The notes under the pieces were generated by a model. That model was not told the DNA's origin. It did no database searches and worked only from the letters and a program-made list of their open reading frames with translations. Source: Candidatus Kaiserbacteria bacterium RIFCSPLOWO2_02_FULL_54_13 (GTDB lineage Bacteria; Patescibacteriota; Minisyncoccia; Phycocordibacterales; Phycocordibacteraceae). From it: a stretch of DNA of 26,272 nucleotides. The position numbers and the translations under genes are program-made. Positions 927 to 24,170 of this stretch are shown here, piece after piece; the stretch's first letter is position 1, and the number at the start of each line of letters is the position of its first letter. The stretch spans positions 702 through 26,973 of the forward strand of contig MFMI01000008.1 in NCBI GenBank assembly GCA_001783465.1, read 5' to 3'.

Positions 927-939
927 ACCGCGCGCTTGT

Positions 940-967
940 CCCATTAGAAATCAGATTTCTAACGGGG
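940..967. repeat. Palindromic repeat copy 1 (CCCCGTTAGAAAT..ATTTCTAACGGGG family)
   Basis: On the - strand reads ccccgttagaaatctgatttctaatggg, 1 mismatch to the copy at 8812-8840; supplies the dedA stop codon. Confidence 0.9.
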
Positions 968-1573
968 CTTGCCGCGGAGGAGATTGATGAAGATGGGGAG
1001 GAAGGAGAGCACGATGATGACGAGCGAGATTGGGAGGATATACCGCTCACTGTCGGGGATGAGAGAGCCGAGGAAGTAGCCCAGCGTTGTCATCCCAATA
1101 CCCCAGAGCGCTCCGCCAATCACGTTATAGCGGAGGAAGGTGCCGTATGTCATAGAACCGATGCCGGCCAAGACCGGCGCGAGTGTGCGCACGATGGGCA
1201 CGAAGCGAGCGAGTATAACCGCTCTCCCGCCGTACTTCTGATAGAACAGCTCCGTGCGTTTCAGATATTCCTGTTTGAAAAAGAGAGAATCCTTGCGCTT
1301 GAAGAGCGGCGTGCCGACGTTCGCGCCGAACCAGTAACCGACCGAGTCGCCGACTATCGCCGCGATGACCACAATCAAGATGAGCGGACCTATAGAAAGG
1401 AACCCGCCTGCGGAGAGAAGTCCGGCGGCGAAGAGGAGCGAGTCGCCCGGGAAGAAGATGCCGATGAGGAGCCCGCTCTCGGCGAAGATGATGAGCGCGA
1501 TGCCGAGATAGCTCCCCGTCTTGATAATCGCAATCGGGTCAAGATTTATACACGCATAAATAAAATCAAGCAT
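959..1573 (-). CDS. dedA: DedA/VTT family membrane protein
   Basis: 'IIFAESGLLIGIFFPGDSLLF', 'GDSVGYW.G', 'ARFVPIVRT.AP..AG' DedA motifs. Start chosen at ATG 1573 (MLDF...) because the longer ORF start overlaps the divergent gene and a -10 box lies 8 nt upstream. Confidence 0.93.
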   Translation of the reverse strand: MLDFIYACINLDPIAIIKTGSYLGIALIIFAESGLLIGIFFPGDSLLFAAGLLSAGGFLSIGPLILIVVIAAIVGDSVGYWFGANVGTPLFKRKDSLFFKQEYLKRTELFYQKYGGRAVILARFVPIVRTLAPVLAGIGSMTYGTFLRYNVIGGALWGIGMTTLGYFLGSLIPDSERYILPISLVIIVLSFLPIFINLLRGKPR

Positions 1574-6741: not shown

Positions 6742-8820
6742 ATGTCCAGTCAATTCAAACTCCATCTACCATTCCAGCCGGCGGGGGACCAGCCGCAGGC
6801 TATAGAGAAGCTTGGAGAAGGGCTCAAGCGCGGTTTACGGCATCAGACCCTTTTCGGCGTGACCGGGAGCGGGAAGACCTTCACCGTGGCGAATGTTATT
6901 GCAAAGAATGATAAGCCGACTCTCGTGCTCGCGCACAATAAGACGCTCGCGGCGCAGCTCGCACAGGAGTATCGGGAATTCTTCCCCACAAACGCCGTCC
7001 ACTACTTCGTCTCCTACTACGACTACTATCAGCCGGAGGCGTATATCGCGCACTCGGACACCTACATTGAGAAAGAGGCGATGATAAACGCCGAGATAGA
7101 CCGCCTGCGTCACGCGGCGACGCAGGCACTGCTCACGCGCAAAGATGTCATCATCGTCGCATCTGTTTCTGCGATTTATGGTCTCGGTTCCCCAGAGGAA
7201 TATGAAAAGGTGCACGTTAAACTGGAAGCTGGACAGCTAGAAACTAGAGGCTCGTTAATACGCAAATTAGTGGGAATATATTTTGAGCGCACGAACGTCG
7301 ACCTCAATCCGGGGCAGTTGCGTGCTATCGGCAACTCGCTTGAATTTATGCCAGTGAACGAGCGCGTTATCTATCGCGTTATCTTCACTGGCGACGAAAT
7401 CGCGAATGTAGAAAAACTTGACCCAGTATCGCGTGCAAAGTTATCAGAACCAAAAAATGTTTTTGTATTTCCTGCCAAGCACTTCATCACGAGTGAAGAG
7501 AAGCGCAATCGCGCAATTGAAGATATTAAATTGGAATTGGAAGAACAGCTCGCCAAGTTTAAGCGTGAAGAGAAGCCGCTTGAAGCCGAGCGCCTGAAGC
7601 GCCGTACCCTTCATGACCTTGCGCTCATCCGTGAGCTCGGCTACACAAGCGGTATTGAGAATTATTCGCGCCACTTCGACGGGAGGAAGCCGGGTGAGCC
7701 GCCCTTCACCCTCCTCAGCTACTTCAAGCGCTGTGACAAAAAGTTTCTCACCGTCATAGACGAGTCGCATGTCACCGTCCCGCAGATTGGCGGCATGTAC
7801 GCGGGAGACAAATCGCGCAAGGATGTGCTTGTTGAATACGGCTTCCGCCTCCCCTCGGCGCGCGACAATCGCCCGCTTACGTTTGAAGAATTTGAAGAGC
7901 GCGTGGGTCAGGTGCTCTACACGAGCGCGACGCCGGGGCCGTATGAGAAGAAGCATTCAGAACAAACGGTTGAACAAGTCATTCGCCCGACCGGTCTCGT
8001 AGACCCCGAGCTCGTCGTGCGCCCTGTTTCCGAAGGCACGGCAAATAGTATGATATATCATACAATTCAGCCGTACAGTGCATACGTCGGTCAGATCCAG
8101 GATTTTATTGAAGAAGCAGAAAAGACTATTAAAAATGGCGGGCGCGCGCTCGCGACCACACTCACCAAACAGATGGCCGAAGACCTCTCTGCATTTTTGA
8201 GAGAAAAAGGAATAAAGGCCGAATATCTACATTCAGACGTGAAGACGATTGACCGCATTGATATCCTCACCAACTTCCGCAAAGGCGAATTTGATATTCT
8301 TGTCGGTGTGAACTTACTCCGCGAGGGGCTGGACCTGCCCGAGGTGGAGCTCATCGGCATCTTGGATGCAGATAAAGAGGGCTTCTTGCGCTCCGAGACA
8401 TCGCTTATACAGACCATCGGGCGCGCCGCGCGTAATATCCTCGGTCGCGTGATTCTCTACGCTGATGTGATGACCGACTCTTTGGAGCGCGCTATCGGCG
8501 AGACGAACCGCCGTCGGGCGCTACAGGTCGCGTACAACGAGAAGCACGGCATCACGCCGAAGACGATTAAAAAAGAAATTCACGATATCGCCGCGTCTAT
8601 ACGTACGGAGCATCAGCGTACGATTGATGAACTACTCGTGTTGGATACGCTTGCGTATAAAGACGACCCGAAGGAGTTTATTAAGAGAAAGAGGGAAGAG
8701 ATGAGTGAGGCTGTAGAGCAGTTAGACTTTGAAACCGCCGCGCTTATCAGGGACGAAATCTATAAGCTGGAGGGCATCGGTCCTCGCGCTCGCAAACCCC
8801 GCACGCGCAAACCCCGTTAG
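6742..8820 (+). CDS. uvrB: Excinuclease ABC subunit B
   Basis: 'P.GDQPQAI', Walker A 'GVTGSGKT', 'HNKTLAAQL', beta-hairpin 'VSYYDYYQPEAY', 'DESH', 'NLLREGLD.PEV', C-terminal UVR 'LDFETAA.IRD'. Confidence 0.98.
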   Translation: MSSQFKLHLPFQPAGDQPQAIEKLGEGLKRGLRHQTLFGVTGSGKTFTVANVIAKNDKPTLVLAHNKTLAAQLAQEYREFFPTNAVHYFVSYYDYYQPEAYIAHSDTYIEKEAMINAEIDRLRHAATQALLTRKDVIIVASVSAIYGLGSPEEYEKVHVKLEAGQLETRGSLIRKLVGIYFERTNVDLNPGQLRAIGNSLEFMPVNERVIYRVIFTGDEIANVEKLDPVSRAKLSEPKNVFVFPAKHFITSEEKRNRAIEDIKLELEEQLAKFKREEKPLEAERLKRRTLHDLALIRELGYTSGIENYSRHFDGRKPGEPPFTLLSYFKRCDKKFLTVIDESHVTVPQIGGMYAGDKSRKDVLVEYGFRLPSARDNRPLTFEEFEERVGQVLYTSATPGPYEKKHSEQTVEQVIRPTGLVDPELVVRPVSEGTANSMIYHTIQPYSAYVGQIQDFIEEAEKTIKNGGRALATTLTKQMAEDLSAFLREKGIKAEYLHSDVKTIDRIDILTNFRKGEFDILVGVNLLREGLDLPEVELIGILDADKEGFLRSETSLIQTIGRAARNILGRVILYADVMTDSLERAIGETNRRRALQVAYNEKHGITPKTIKKEIHDIAASIRTEHQRTIDELLVLDTLAYKDDPKEFIKRKREEMSEAVEQLDFETAALIRDEIYKLEGIGPRARKPRTRKPR

Positions 8821-8840
8821 AAATCTGATTTCTAACGGGG
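8812..8840. repeat. Palindromic repeat copy 2 (CCCCGTTAGAAAT..ATTTCTAACGGGG family)
   Basis: ccccgttagaaat-ctg-atttctaacgggg, perfect 13-bp arms; supplies the uvrB TAG stop. Confidence 0.92.
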
Positions 8841-8860
8841 CAAACCGTTTTCAGGCAGTT

Positions 8861-14540: not shown

Positions 14541-15131
14541 ATGAAGAAACCAGATATAGAGCGCGTTGCGGAATTCATGCGTCTTCTCCACGCCTTCCAA
14601 TCAGTGGAACGCGTGATTCCCGCACCCAATCTAACTCGCAAGGAGAATGATGTTGAACATTCGTATACGCTGACGATGTTTTGTTGGTATCTCAATGATG
14701 CGCTTGAACTCGGGCTCAATAAGAACAAGCTACTCGAATACGGTCTTGTACACGATTTTGTAGAAGTATACGCTGGCGATACCTATGTGTTTGATCAGGA
14801 ACGTAAAGAAACAAAACACCAGCGCGAGGAAGAGGCGCGCATACGCATTGCGGCGGAATTCCCAGAATTCAAGAGTTTGCACAAGGCCATTGAGCGGTAC
14901 GAGAGCCAAGGAGATCCTGAAGCAATGTTTGTTTACGTCGTAGACAAATTGGTTCCTATGGTCACCAACTATCTCCAAAATGGTCACAGCTGGAAGGAAA
15001 TGAATGTACAGCACGAGGAACTTTTTGCGCTTAAGCGACGAACTATCAAAAATCATGAGCAGGTACGTGAACTACTGGAGCAACTCATCCAAGAAATCGA
15101 ACCGCGTTGGAACGATTTTTTCAATACTTGA
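14541..15131 (+). CDS. HD-domain metal-dependent phosphohydrolase (YfbR/HDDC2-like)
   Basis: 'ENDVEHSY', 'LVHDFVEVYAGD', 'K...E..A', 'EA.FV..VDK'. Confidence 0.88.
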   Translation: MKKPDIERVAEFMRLLHAFQSVERVIPAPNLTRKENDVEHSYTLTMFCWYLNDALELGLNKNKLLEYGLVHDFVEVYAGDTYVFDQERKETKHQREEEARIRIAAEFPEFKSLHKAIERYESQGDPEAMFVYVVDKLVPMVTNYLQNGHSWKEMNVQHEELFALKRRTIKNHEQVRELLEQLIQEIEPRWNDFFNT

Positions 15132-15261
15132 ATTAGCTTCAGATTATCGGCCAGAAATGATAGGGTAGAGAAGTCGGGCCCCTATCTTCGCGGACTCGAT
15201 ACATACCCTTCGTTCGGCGAAAGCGAATAATTGCGGACACTCATTCGCTTTACCTCACTCA

Positions 15262-15337
15262 GGGCCTGTAGCTCAATTGGTAGAGCGCCTCATTTGCAAT
15301 GAGGAGGTAACCGGTTCGAAACCGGTCAGGTCCACCA
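15262..15337 (+). tRNA. tRNA-Ala(TGC)
   Basis: Acceptor GGGCCTG/CAGGTCC with G3:U70, anticodon arm CCTCA-TTTGCAA-TGAGG, T arm ACCGG-TTCGAAA-CCGGT, encoded ACCA. Confidence 0.96.
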
Positions 15338-15525
15338 TGAAACCACAGCATTTTGATATTCTTGGTTCGTTAGCATTCGCGTACGTGACTGTGTTCGCAG
15401 TTTATTCGTTAACGCACGGAGGAGACGTACCGACATGGAGCATCATCCTCCTCGCTATAATCGGGATTGCTGGACTTACGGTAGATGTACTGATTGTCTA
15501 TCGTTATTTTATTCGGAAGCAATAA
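15337..15525 (+). CDS. Small two-helix membrane protein (62 aa)
   Basis: MKPQHFDILGSLAFAYVTVFAVYSL...WSIILLAIIGIAGLTVDVLIVYRYFIRKQ; two hydrophobic segments, basic C-terminus; ATG shares the terminal A of the tRNA CCA. Confidence 0.65.
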   Translation: MKPQHFDILGSLAFAYVTVFAVYSLTHGGDVPTWSIILLAIIGIAGLTVDVLIVYRYFIRKQ

Positions 15526-15529
15526 ATGT

Positions 15530-15603
15530 TGGTCGGGCCGCCGGGAATTGAACCCGGTCTACACGCACCCGAAGCGTGCGTACTACCGGCATACTCCGGC
15601 CCG
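15530..15603 (-). tRNA. tRNA-Pro(CGG)
   Basis: CGGGCCG/CGGCCCG acceptor, CACGC-TTCGGGT-GCGTG anticodon arm, CCGGG-TTCAATT-CCCGG T arm, ACCA end. Confidence 0.95.
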
Positions 15604-15628
15604 TTTACCCCGAACTCTGTCGAGGGGG

Positions 15629-15702
15629 TGCGCTCTATAGGATTCGAACCTATGACCTTCCGCGTGTGAGGCGGACGCTCTAACCAACTGAGCTAAGAGC
15701 GC
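15629..15702 (-). tRNA. tRNA-Val(CAC)
   Basis: GCGCTCT/AGAGCGC acceptor, TCCGC-CTCACAC-GCGGA anticodon arm, ATAGG-TTCGAAT-CCTAT T arm; CCA not fully encoded. Confidence 0.95.
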
Positions 15703-15721
15703 GCACAAGCACAATATCACA

Positions 15722-15883
15722 TCGGGCTATCGGGAATCGAACCCGATCTATTCAGCACCATTTTCACATGTCGGGATACCCGGAATCGAACCGGGACTAC
15801 AGCCACCCCATGGCCGCGTACTACCACTATACGATATCCCGTTCAAAATGGTGCTGGACGTACTACCGGTATACTATAGCCCG
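15722..15883 (-). other. Interrupted outer tRNA-Pro scaffold enclosing tRNA-Pro(GGG)
   Basis: 5' half 15883-15859 (CGGGCTA-TA-GTAT-ACCGGTA-GTAC-G) and 3' half 15750-15722 (TAGA-TCGGG-TTCGATT-CCCGA-TAGCCCG-A) pair with each other; no anticodon loop, replaced by a 14-nt inverted repeat and a whole tRNA. Confidence 0.85.
15771..15841 (-). tRNA. tRNA-Pro(GGG), nested
   Basis: CGGGATA/TATCCCG acceptor, CGGCC-ATGGGGT-GGCTG anticodon arm, CCCGG-TTCGATT-CCGGG T arm, A73; CCA not encoded. Confidence 0.93.
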
Positions 15884-15936
15884 TTCGCCTTTTGGAGTGT
15901 AGCAAACGTCTCTCGTTTCTGGTATTTTTATTCCAC

Positions 15937-16252
15937 GGGCCTATAGCCCCTCACACGAAACAACCTCGCTATGTTCTACGTTTATGTACTTCGCAGTCGT
16001 AAAGATGAAAAGTTATATATTGGATACACAGATGACCTACGCCGCCGATTATCCGAACATAACAAAGGGTTAAGTCGTGCCACAAAGTCGCGAATCCCGC
16101 TAGATTTGGTATATTACGAGGCGTACGCATCGCAGGCTGATGCTAAAGTGCGCGAGAAGCGACTCAAGTCTTCGGCCGGTGCGAACACAGCACTCAAACG
16201 TCGATTGCGGGACAGCCTGCGATAAGGATGTTTCGTGTGAAGGGGCCTATAG
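15937..16252 (+). mobile_element. Putative GIY-YIG mini-element with inverted repeats and duplicated tRNA 5' end
   Basis: GGGCCTATAG direct repeat at 15937-15946 and 16243-16252; imperfect 26/28-nt inverted repeat 15941-15966 / 16225-16252 bracketing the ORF. Confidence 0.55.
15971..16225 (+). CDS. Small stand-alone GIY-YIG nuclease (UPF0213/YhbQ-like), 84 aa
   Basis: 'FYVYVL.S......YIGYT.DL.RR..EHN.G', 'LVYYEAY', 'A..RE..LK'. Confidence 0.93.
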   Translation: MFYVYVLRSRKDEKLYIGYTDDLRRRLSEHNKGLSRATKSRIPLDLVYYEAYASQADAKVREKRLKSSAGANTALKRRLRDSLR

Positions 16253-16316
16253 TAAAGTGGTATTACGCGTCATTCGCATTGACGAGGCGGGAGTCCGATT
16301 CTCCCTAGGTCCACCA
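16243..16316 (+). tRNA. tRNA-Ala(CGC)
   Basis: GGGCCTA/TAGGTCC with G3:U70, D stem GTAA/TTAC, CGTCA-TTCGCAT-TGACG, T arm GGGAG-TCCGATT-CTCCC, ACCA. Confidence 0.92.
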
Positions 16317-16440
16317 CTTCGCTCGTAGAGTACTACGAGCTTCGCGGTGCAAGCACCATGTCAGAAAATTACGTAGACAAACCGTGTTCACTACTTGGCG
16401 AAGTGGTGCCCCGCGAAGCTATACTAGCGGAGTGGGGCCT

Positions 16441-16680
16441 ATGTATTACGTTTATATTTTAAAAAGTGGGAAAGATGGTAGCCGATACATCGGGGTTACT
16501 GAAGATTTGAAACGTAGATTATCAGAGCATAACAATGGTGGCTCTCGCTACTCCAGCAATAAACGACCGTATAAAATAATCTGGTATTCAGCATTTGTCG
16601 TTAAAGCCAGAGCACATGAATTTGAGAAATATCTTAAGTCGAGCTCGGGGTATGCTTTTTCTAAGAAACATTTGTTATAG
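16441..16680 (+). CDS. Small stand-alone GIY-YIG nuclease, second paralog, 79 aa
   Basis: 'YYVYILKS......YIGVT.DL.RR..EHN.G', 'A..FEKYLKSSSG'; ATG 16441 preferred over the track start. Confidence 0.93.
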   Translation: MYYVYILKSGKDGSRYIGVTEDLKRRLSEHNNGGSRYSSNKRPYKIIWYSAFVVKARAHEFEKYLKSSSGYAFSKKHLL

Positions 16681-16690
16681 TGCGACACAC

Positions 16691-16801
16691 GGGCCTGTAG
16701 TTCAGCGGTAAGCAGAGCTTTCTGCTTCGGCGCTCGGCAGAAGTAAATACGCAGACGCATTCACTTCGCCTTACTTCTTGCAGTAGAACGCATCCATAGC
16801 A
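16691..16801 (+). pseudogene. tRNA-Ala-like 5' fragment with a 75-nt insertion in the D-loop
   Basis: GGGCCTG-TA-GTTC-AGCGGT [insert 16710-16784] A-GAAC-G-CATCC-ATAGCAT; D stem GTTC/GAAC restored on removing the insert; no 3' half found. Confidence 0.7.
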
Positions 16802-16823
16802 TCATGTTATTCTTCCTCACGCA

Positions 16824-16896
16824 GGGCCCGTAGCTCACTTGGTAGAGCGCCGCCATGGCATGGCGGAGGCAAGGGGATCGTAACCCCTCGGGTCCA
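16824..16896 (+). tRNA. tRNA-Ala(GGC)
   Basis: GGGCCCG/CGGGTCC with G3:U70, CCGCC-ATGGCAT-GGCGG, T arm AGGGG-ATCGTAA-CCCCT (non-canonical loop); CCA not encoded. Confidence 0.9.
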
Positions 16897-16966
16897 CAAT
16901 CGCTTGACAGCGCATGCTATACTCTGGGACGGTCGAGATTATCAGCCATTATCTCTTACGACCACC

Positions 16967-17056
16967 ATGGAACCTGAAACAACGAATACGTGCGATAAGT
17001 GTGGCCACGAGCACGTTACAGGCGAGAAGTGCTCCGAGTGCGACTGCATGGGTTAA
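16967..17056 (+). CDS. Cys/His-rich 29-aa peptide, possible metal-binding microprotein
   Basis: MEPETTNTCDKCGHEHVTGEKCSECDCMG*; tgcTATACT at 16916-16924 upstream and a terminator directly downstream. Confidence 0.55.
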   Translation: MEPETTNTCDKCGHEHVTGEKCSECDCMG

Positions 17057-17076
17057 GGGCTGATTTCTCACAACGT

Positions 17077-17110
17077 AAAGCCCCGTCCTCCGAAGTGAGG
17101 ACGGGGCTTT
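17077..17110. terminator. Bidirectional intrinsic terminator
   Basis: aaagccccgtcctc-cgaagt-gaggacggggcttt, perfect 14-bp stem between convergent ORFs. Confidence 0.88.
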
Positions 17111-17128
17111 GCGCATACAGCTTTGCCT

Positions 17129-17380
17129 TTATTTCATGTGCGCCGAGACGAGCTTGGTCATCTCAAACATCGTGACCTCGCCCTTGCCGCCGAAAACAGC
17201 CTTCAGCTTGTCATCGGCGAGGATATTGCGCTTATTCGCCGGATTCTGAAGATTGTTCTTCTTGATATATACCCACAGCTGTTTGACCACTTCCGTTCTC
17301 GGGAGCGGACCTTTGCCCACAACCGCTTCTAGTTCGGCTGAAAGGGTAAGGGGCTTGGATAGAGCTGGATTTAGTGCCAT
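17129..17380 (-). CDS. SWIB/MDM2 domain protein
   Basis: 'S.EL..VVG...L.RTEVVK.LW.YIK.NNLQ.P.NKR.I.AD.KL..VF....VTMFEM.K'. Confidence 0.95.
   Translation of the reverse strand: MALNPALSKPLTLSAELEAVVGKGPLPRTEVVKQLWVYIKKNNLQNPANKRNILADDKLKAVFGGKGEVTMFEMTKLVSAHMK

Positions 17381-22153: not shown

Positions 22154-24170
<2,017 letters not shown>

Follow-up and report, generated by a model that had tools for sequence, protein, structure and literature searches.

The Ssn nucleases, single-domain GIY-YIG proteins of 94 amino acid residues, bind hairpin repeats in single-stranded DNA only and cut a few bases upstream (Chenal et al. 2025, PMC11893778). Cleavage is retained if the two halves of the hairpin lie on separate strands, and the ssn genes are flanked by NTS/SRM hairpin repeats, an arrangement (NTS-ssnA-NTS) that the authors liken to an insertion sequence (PMC11893778). 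Another described GIY-YIG gene is segB of T4, a free-standing homing gene located in the T4 tRNA cluster (PMC2330249). Here we describe a GIY-YIG gene located between inverted repeats at the 5' end of the tRNA-Ala(CGC) gene of Candidatus Kaiserbacteria bacterium RIFCSPLOWO2_02_FULL_54_13 (Patescibacteriota). The whole stretch of DNA analysed, 26,272 nucleotides of contig MFMI01000008.1, is referred to as the window, and coordinates given without a contig are those of the window. The segment 15946-16246 very likely belongs, in our judgement, to a family of very small mobile cassettes, each composed of a single GIY-YIG gene of 80-95 residues between terminal inverted repeats, of which the right arm overlaps the end of the open reading frame (ORF). 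A search of the literature on GIY-YIG proteins with tRNA genes, with Patescibacteria, with inverted repeats plus target duplication and with COG2827/UPF0213/YhbQ found no description of such cassettes as mobile DNA.

Organization of the tRNA-Ala(CGC) locus

The window includes a tRNA island composed of tRNA-Ala(TGC) at 15262, tRNA-Pro(CGG), tRNA-Val(CAC) and tRNA-Pro(GGG) on the minus strand, tRNA-Ala(CGC) at 16243-16316 and tRNA-Ala(GGC) at 16824. The tRNA-Ala(CGC) gene (plus strand) was recognized as intact by both ARAGORN and Rfam (61.8 bits), carries the G3:U70 pair, and is identical to the tRNA of a cassette-free relative (L064), in support of the proposal in a preliminary description of this locus that an intact tRNA is regenerated. 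The window contains exactly two copies of the first ten bases of the gene, GGGCCTATAG, located at 15937-15946 and 16243-16252, the positions given in that description; the chance expectation is 0.01, and two matches were obtained in none of 100 shuffled sequences.

In most relatives a -10-like box, TGGTAGAAT or TAnAAT, is located 8-10 nt upstream of +1 of tRNA-Ala(CGC). In the window, TGGTATTTT plus 8 nt stands immediately ahead of the left GGGCCTATAG, and no such box is present just upstream of 16243; the left GGGCCTATAG therefore marks the start of the old tRNA gene. Judged from the relatives, the segment 15919-15936 (plus strand), made of the -10-like TGGTATTTT and the 8-nt spacer, is a putative old promoter of tRNA-Ala(CGC); a consensus promoter/terminator scan made no call at this site.

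A repeat search detected an inverted repeat of 20 nt with 90% complementarity at 15947-15966 and 16225-16244. Gapped alignment gave longer arms of 26 and 28 nt, running through the palindromic CTATAG and broken by one substitution and two 1-nt gaps, exactly as had been noted before. The left arm (CCCCTCACACGAAACAACCT, 15947-15966, plus strand), supported by both the repeat search and the gapped alignment, has no other occurrence anywhere in the genome. The right arm (16225-16245, plus strand) corresponds by homology to the final codons of the longer paralogues and finishes in a G run shared with nt 1-3 of the tRNA. The last base of the stop codon (TAA, ending at 16225) is at the same time the first base of the arm, as noted earlier. 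When 15930-16262 was folded (z = -2.4), the minimum-energy and centroid structures both contained the long-range stem, and it is possible on paper that the left arm competes, as RNA, with the acceptor stem. Contigs of independent metagenome runs cover 15675-16272 with zero differences, and the cassette is therefore not an assembly artefact. A remnant of a group I intron was also considered and was rejected, because the 4-35 nt between the tRNA pieces and the ORF leave no room for a ribozyme core.

Other features of the tRNA island were noted in passing. At 15721-15885 (minus strand), a complete tRNA-Pro(GGG) is nested in a split tRNA-Pro-like gene, and its flanks form a perfect 12-nt inverted repeat (15753-15764 and 15845-15856). 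The segment 16691-16823 carries a tRNA-Ala-like 5' fragment, GGGCCTGTAGTTCAGCGGTAAG; downstream of it come a strong hairpin and, next to the intact tRNA-Ala(GGC), the leader CCTCACGCA of that gene. The segment has the appearance of another insertion layer or relic. A leader similar to CCTCACGCA, CCTCACTCA, lies ahead of tRNA-Ala(TGC) at 15253. Within the genus, tRNA-Ala(CGC) takes two forms, one with the D arm GTAA/TTAC, as in the window, and one with the usual GCTC/GAGC.

GIY-YIG nuclease and its paralogues

The ORF between the arms, located at 15971-16225 on the plus strand, encodes 84 residues and matches the Pfam GIY-YIG family (PF01541) with an E-value of 4.5e-16 and a score of 59.4 bits against a cut-off of 22.6. 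All the residues that are invariant in 25 aligned relatives (Y5, Y16, G18, R26, H30, E62 and K66) are kept, and these include the catalytic Tyr (GIY), Tyr (YIG), Arg, His and Glu of the GIY-YIG superfamily, represented by Y5, Y16, R26, H30 and E62. The assignment of this ORF as GIY-YIG, originally made from the sequence alone, is secured by the Pfam match and the kept residues. The protein is a stand-alone single GIY-YIG domain with no second domain, ancestrally of 89 residues: the TAA at 16223 stands where the paralogues have CAA and is a nonsense codon five codons ahead of the ancestral stop, an in-frame TGA at 16238-16240 that lies within the right arm, 2 nt ahead of the tRNA. In the paralogue on contig 27, the last residues of the protein (...SLRQGRLV) are encoded by the right arm.

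The genome (682 kb in 32 contigs) contains a total of six mini GIY-YIG genes, and in four cases a tRNA in the same orientation follows directly. The copies within one genome are 37-64% identical and thus old, unlike those of an actively transposing insertion sequence. With its nonsense codon, a mismatch and a bulge in the stem, and arms that are single-copy in the genome, the window copy may be ageing and is perhaps inactive. A second mini GIY-YIG gene of the window (16441-16680, plus strand) encodes 79 residues, is 51% identical to the first, and lacks a clear end repeat. Its ATG is immediately preceded by GGGCCT (16434), which itself comes after a TATACT box, and its stop codon is followed at 16691 by a tRNA-Ala-like 5' fragment; the gene was found at this position in none of 20 relatives of the same genus.

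The ORFs of five mini GIY-YIG genes, one on contig 5 of the window genome (G000:C5:6544-6789, minus strand) and those of L017, L091, L097 and L105, extend 10-15 nt into the downstream tRNA. The stop codon of the contig 5 copy is the tRNA's own U8-A9-G10 (TAG).

Presence and absence at the tRNA cluster

The orthologous cluster, defined as three Ala, two Pro and one Val tRNA followed by a SWIB-domain gene and atpB, was recovered in 20 genomes of the same genus with the content Ala-tgc, Val, Pro, Pro, Ala-cgc, Ala-ggc, SWIB and atpB. No GIY-YIG match was obtained within the cluster in any of the 20, and in several of them no more than about 25 nt separate tRNA-Ala(CGC) from tRNA-Ala(GGC). The view that the cassette is an insertion at the 5' end of the tRNA gene is borne out by this absence and by the clean filled/empty pairs of sister cassettes described below. 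Upstream of tRNA-Ala(CGC), the spacers of different species cannot be aligned, and the exact junction in the window is therefore without an empty counterpart; the comparison suggested in the preliminary description thus yielded cassette-free clusters in 20 relatives, but not the exact empty junction of this site. Apart from this, the order and the orientation of the six tRNAs were observed to vary among species in the same-genus clusters (L061-L080).

Logan contigs from four metagenome runs were compared with 15100-17200 for an empty allele or an excision joint. For the source organism only the filled form was found, and the joints listed are short-sided and come from tRNAs of other organisms. 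This is no evidence against mobility.

Sister cassettes and the length of the target duplication

The closest homologue, L002 of the same genus (71% identity), has the ends CCTGACACAC.../...GTGTGACAGG and is placed before tRNA-Val(GAC). The tRNA-Val(GAC) locus of the window genome itself provides the empty site: the two loci align outside the cassette, which is inserted after nt 6 of the tRNA and has GCGCGG on both sides, composed of a 5-bp duplication and one G from the cassette end. The contig 27 paralogue (64% identity) has ends of the same kind, and in the relative G048 both flanking genes are joined at a single TATGA, revealing an exact 5-bp TATGA target duplication. L122, from a Saccharibacteria genome (69% identity), has arms nearly identical to those of the window, apart from one compensated pair, and is located at a TATGA gene junction. 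Four relatives with the ends GCCCCTCAC.../...GTGAGGGGC were found in genes for tRNA-Ala(GGC), tRNA-Ile, tRNA-Ala(TGC) and tRNA-Val, and three of the four show an exact 10-nt repeat GGGCnnnTAG as in the window, the repeat in tRNA-Ala(TGC) being imperfect.

The preliminary description took the 10-nt repeat as a 10-bp target duplication. The repeat itself is real, but the duplication is probably of 5 bp, as in the sisters with empty sites. On this comparison, the 10-nt repeat of the window is probably composed of a 5-bp duplication of CTATA (tRNA nt 5-9, ending in U8-A9), GGGC from the right end of the cassette, and one G, the first base of the cassette matching G10; this is the simplest reading common to the cassettes. 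By analogy with the sister cassettes, the likely target duplication within the left copy (15937-15946, plus strand), a relic of the tRNA-Ala 5' end, is CTATA at 15941-15945. The cassette would then be of 301 nt (15946-16246, plus strand), a limit that follows the homology of its ends to cassettes delimited by empty sites, i.e. the contig 27 paralogue, L002 and L122. Its limits range from 15947-16242 for a duplication of 10 bp to 15946-16246 for one of 5 bp, and a true duplication of 7 or 10 bp in the window is possible.

The same data bear on the idea of a free-standing homing endonuclease gene, which would make a double-strand break in cassette-free tRNA alleles and be copied by recombinational repair, the repeats being by-products. 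The presence or absence of the gene at a conserved gene, the weak similarity of its GIY-YIG domain to endonucleases of group I introns, and the precedent of T4 SegB in a tRNA cluster (PMC2330249) all fit such an origin. Homing, however, leaves no target duplication, whereas the sisters show exact 5-bp duplications together with terminal inverted repeats; the near relatives occupy unrelated sites rather than one cognate site; gene-less short elements share the ends of a sister cassette (see below); and a protein of 84 residues with the catalytic domain only has no DNA-binding domain for a long recognition site. We therefore consider homing improbable as the origin of the cassette.

Target sites other than tRNA 5' ends

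Under the reading as a mobile cassette, the targets are not confined to tRNA genes. One cassette type, with the ends RYCCGTTAGAG.../...CTCTAACGGRY, is inserted precisely in ATGA stop/start overlaps. The cassette L085 (G007:C1:107343-107627) is located exactly in the ATGA overlap between the pheS stop and the pheT start, and its counterpart in the window genome (G000:C18:20480-20790) is a plain, empty ATGA. The left ATGA serves as the start codon of the cassette gene and the right ATGA as its stop codon, and since both copies supply them, the cassette has neither a start nor a stop codon of its own. L012 is a second cassette in an ATGA overlap, and this site is also empty in the window genome. 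Near relatives are thus found at unrelated sites, namely tRNA-Val, an ATGA junction and an intergenic CATAA. In some of the tRNA-adjacent cassettes, the ORF ends on U8-A9-G10 of the tRNA.

The right ends of four further cassettes (L124, L153, L154 and L086) abut AGGAAAGTCC, which we take to be a conserved motif of the RNase P RNA gene; if it is, genes for stable RNAs other than tRNAs would also be targets. Insertion at tRNA 5' ends, proposed earlier as the habit of the element, is true here and for several sisters, but the tRNA 5' ends are only a part of the target range because similar cassettes occupy ATGA/TATGA junctions and AGGAAAGTCC sites.

End repeats and tRNA adjacency as family properties

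A total of 74 mini GIY-YIG genes were collected from 41 related genomes, of which 19 are YhbQ/UPF0213-like with the signature GAxYTK and 55 are others. By setting the inverted-repeat score at 24 or more, an end repeat was detected for 22 of the 55 non-YhbQ genes, as compared with 11 of 818 control genes (1.3%) and 21 of 2870 random placements. Of the 55 genes, 16 are directly followed by a tRNA in the same orientation, as compared with 15 of 1137 background ORFs. Among the 19 YhbQ-like genes, neither an end repeat (0/19) nor a tRNA directly downstream (0/19) was found. The predicted enrichment of flanking inverted repeats and of tRNA adjacency near small GIY-YIG genes was thus obtained, far above the controls, and the end repeat is shown to be a property of the cassette GIY-YIG family that is foreign to the neighbouring YhbQ-like family. 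When the single window protein was used for the search, relatives at 50-69% identity were found in many phyla; 79 loci were fetched, and the repeat is present in 39 of the 77 that were scored. The arm sequences vary widely among cassettes, each pair staying complementary through compensatory differences. Among the mismatches in the arms, G:T plus T:G amount to 10 and A:C plus C:A to 7, counts based on few informative mismatches and over-extended alignments and compatible with a role of the stem either in DNA or in RNA.

As a separate observation, a copy of the tRNA 5' half of 29-36 nt, extending to the anticodon loop, is present upstream of three tRNA-adjacent cassettes (L022, L014 and L005). 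Two such copies are interrupted by small GC-rich hairpin inserts.

A further possibility is a resident host gene, in which the repeat acts only in RNA, as a stem between the 5' and 3' parts of an mRNA that is produced along with tRNAs and is stabilized or processed through this stem, and the repeat of the tRNA start results from local rearrangement of the shuffled cluster. The gene is indeed located between a promoter-like box and a tRNA, the stem folds, and the tRNA cluster is rearranged between species. Against this reading, 20 relatives have the cluster but not the gene, exact filled/empty pairs are found at four other sites, the arms of a sister cassette also bound gene-less short elements, no excess of G:U-compatible mismatches was observed among the few that are informative, and the Ssn enzymes bind no RNA (PMC11893778). 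A resident gene is thus a very improbable explanation, and a role of the stem in RNA may co-exist with the mobility of the cassette.

Candidate movers and gene-less short elements

Profile searches for DDE_Tnp_1, rve, DDE_3 and TnpB gave no match in the genome. A single Xer-like integrase gene and two Y1 (IS200/RAYT-like) ORFs of about 220 residues (G000:C18:15406-16062 and G000:C14:6434-7105) are located elsewhere in the genome, and the earlier statement that the cassette region is without transposase or integrase can be extended, for DDE and TnpB, to the whole genome. The Y1 ORF on contig 18 has the hairpin TACAAGGTTCAACCTTGTA on both sides, and that on contig 14 has two copies of a different hairpin upstream. 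Mobilization by these two Y1-type genes was considered and is unlikely, since they have unrelated hairpins of their own.

The ends of the GIY-YIG cassette on contig 29 are shared with a large number of short elements (RYCCCGTTAGA.../...TCTAACGGGRY). The genome contains 54 inverted-repeat pairs with these ends, consisting of the 282-nt cassette and 53 shorter units, mostly of 31 to about 120 nt and at most of 250 nt; in addition, 60 unpaired arms are present. Most of the units are flanked by ATGA...GA, i.e. located in stop/start overlaps, and three are within the window (938-968, 8811-8841 and 22720-22783). The sole ORF found inside any unit with these abundant ends is the GIY-YIG gene. In a survey of 61 genomes of the same genus, the 9-mer core of the ends was abundant (10-91 hits; control, about 5) in all eight genomes that have the contig 29 cassette type; this type was found in none of the 47 motif-poor genomes, and six motif-rich genomes are without a detected copy. 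This co-occurrence is an association and not a test because the genomes are related.

Two readings of the movement were weighed with these data. We tentatively propose, with less than even confidence, that the cassettes are self-mobile and that the GIY-YIG nuclease, acting in single-stranded DNA on the hairpin formed by the ends of its own cassette, is the only function encoded by the element; the autonomy put forward in the preliminary description is an inference of the same kind. Alternatively, the cassette would be mobile but moved by an unrelated enzyme or by host recombination at short homologies, with the GIY-YIG protein as cargo or as an Ssn-like control on incoming single-stranded DNA, which we regard as rather unlikely. 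The activity of the protein is so far only predicted, the genome does have two Y1 genes, and SsnA of Neisseria acts on transformation and not on transposition (PMC11893778), all of which would suit movement by another enzyme. The Y1 genes, however, are flanked by different hairpins of their own, and the Y1 family is one that produces no terminal inverted repeats and no target duplications; DDE_Tnp_1, rve, DDE_3 and TnpB gave no match in the genome; and the GIY-YIG gene is the only ORF found inside the units with abundant ends, this gene type and these ends co-occurring across the genus.

Model of insertion and expression

In our model of the cassette, the insertion would lie between nt 9 and nt 10 of the tRNA-Ala(CGC) gene, with a duplication of nt 5-9 (CTATA). 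The G-rich right end, GGGGC, would substitute for nt 1-4 of the tRNA, and because the right end replaces these bases, a complete tRNA would be rebuilt downstream. The old tRNA promoter would now read the relic, the nuclease gene and the tRNA as one RNA, from which cleavage by RNase P at the 5' end of the tRNA would free the message of the nuclease. The stem of the cassette may also serve the transcript, e.g. by holding the ends of the mRNA freed by RNase P. The cassette would probably move via a single-stranded form: its arms would pair into a hairpin, the encoded nuclease would recognize this hairpin and cut beside it, as Ssn does, and the joining would be left to host enzymes. GIY-YIG enzymes hydrolyse DNA without formation of a covalent intermediate, a chemistry that does not account for a joining step.

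If the nuclease moves its own cassette, it would provide a sixth enzymatic basis of transposition besides DDE, HUH, serine, tyrosine and Cas1, contained in 0.3 kb; the cassettes would then form an enzymatically new class of transposon, with no smaller autonomous mobile element known, and the newly described Ssn nucleases for single-stranded DNA would gain a natural role. Such an element would persist in tiny gene-dense genomes by landing harmlessly at tRNA starts and ATGA overlaps, with promoters, start codons and stop codons borrowed from the host. With respect to genome biology, the cassette would be a selfish DNA that lasts in genomes of 0.7 Mb with almost no spare DNA, rebuilding the gene that it strikes and riding on the expression signals of that gene. 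There is a demand for Ssn nucleases as tools that cleave single-stranded DNA at a sequence of choice, and each cassette would offer a matched pair of nuclease and hairpin. For annotation, such cassettes would account for many stray tRNA fragments and for many small genes of "GIY-YIG family protein" beside tRNAs.

Comparison with known systems

The cassettes resemble insertion sequences and MITEs in having terminal inverted repeats at the limits of the insert, an ORF that runs into the right repeat, short target duplications, empty sites and, for a sister type, gene-less derivatives. They differ from insertion sequences in the lack of a known transposase class (DDE, HUH, serine, tyrosine or Cas1), in their size of about 0.3 kb and in the strong divergence of the copies within one genome. 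As in the RAYT/REP systems, a single small gene is flanked by amplified hairpin repeats that are thought to be its substrates, but the fold and the chemistry of the Y1 HUH enzymes are different, and the Y1-type genes of the window genome carry unrelated hairpins. Integrative elements of tRNA genes likewise leave the struck tRNA whole, an element end supplying the displaced bases; these elements, however, are kilobases long, employ a tyrosine integrase and usually enter the 3' half of the tRNA, and no integrase is involved here.

Among proteins with solved structures, UPF0213/YhbQ (1zg2 and 1ywl) and SLX1 are the nearest to the window protein by sequence. The match of the window protein to 1zg2 is at an E-value of 3e-5, in contrast to 8e-13 for a member of the YhbQ-like family, and the window protein lacks the GAxYTK signature of the YhbQ-like genes. 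Genes of the segB type share with the cassette the state of a selfish GIY-YIG gene among tRNA genes that is present in some genomes only; the Seg proteins are different in that they are of about 200 residues or more, possess a DNA-binding domain and spread by break repair, without terminal inverted repeats or target duplications.

The likeness to Ssn is seen at several levels. Both proteins are composed of a single GIY-YIG domain of about 90 residues, in which Y6, Y17 and E64 of Ssn correspond with equal spacing to Y5, Y16 and E62 of the window protein, and both genes are bracketed by repeats capable of pairing. The sister cassette on contig 29 has ends that are common to dozens of short repeats, as ssnA has with NTS. 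The two systems differ in that the flanks of the window gene pair with each other, making one split hairpin, whereas a complete hairpin is located on each side in Ssn. The published SRM consensus of the Ssn repeats gave 3 matches in the genome as compared with 3-7 in shuffled sequences, none of them at the cassette. Target duplications, empty sites and tRNA targets are not shown for Ssn, and neither Patescibacteria nor tRNA is mentioned in that paper (PMC11893778). Taken by analogy, Ssn appears to be the closest known system and may serve as a model of the mechanism, the cassette family being likened, rather than assigned, to the Ssn family (cd10448).
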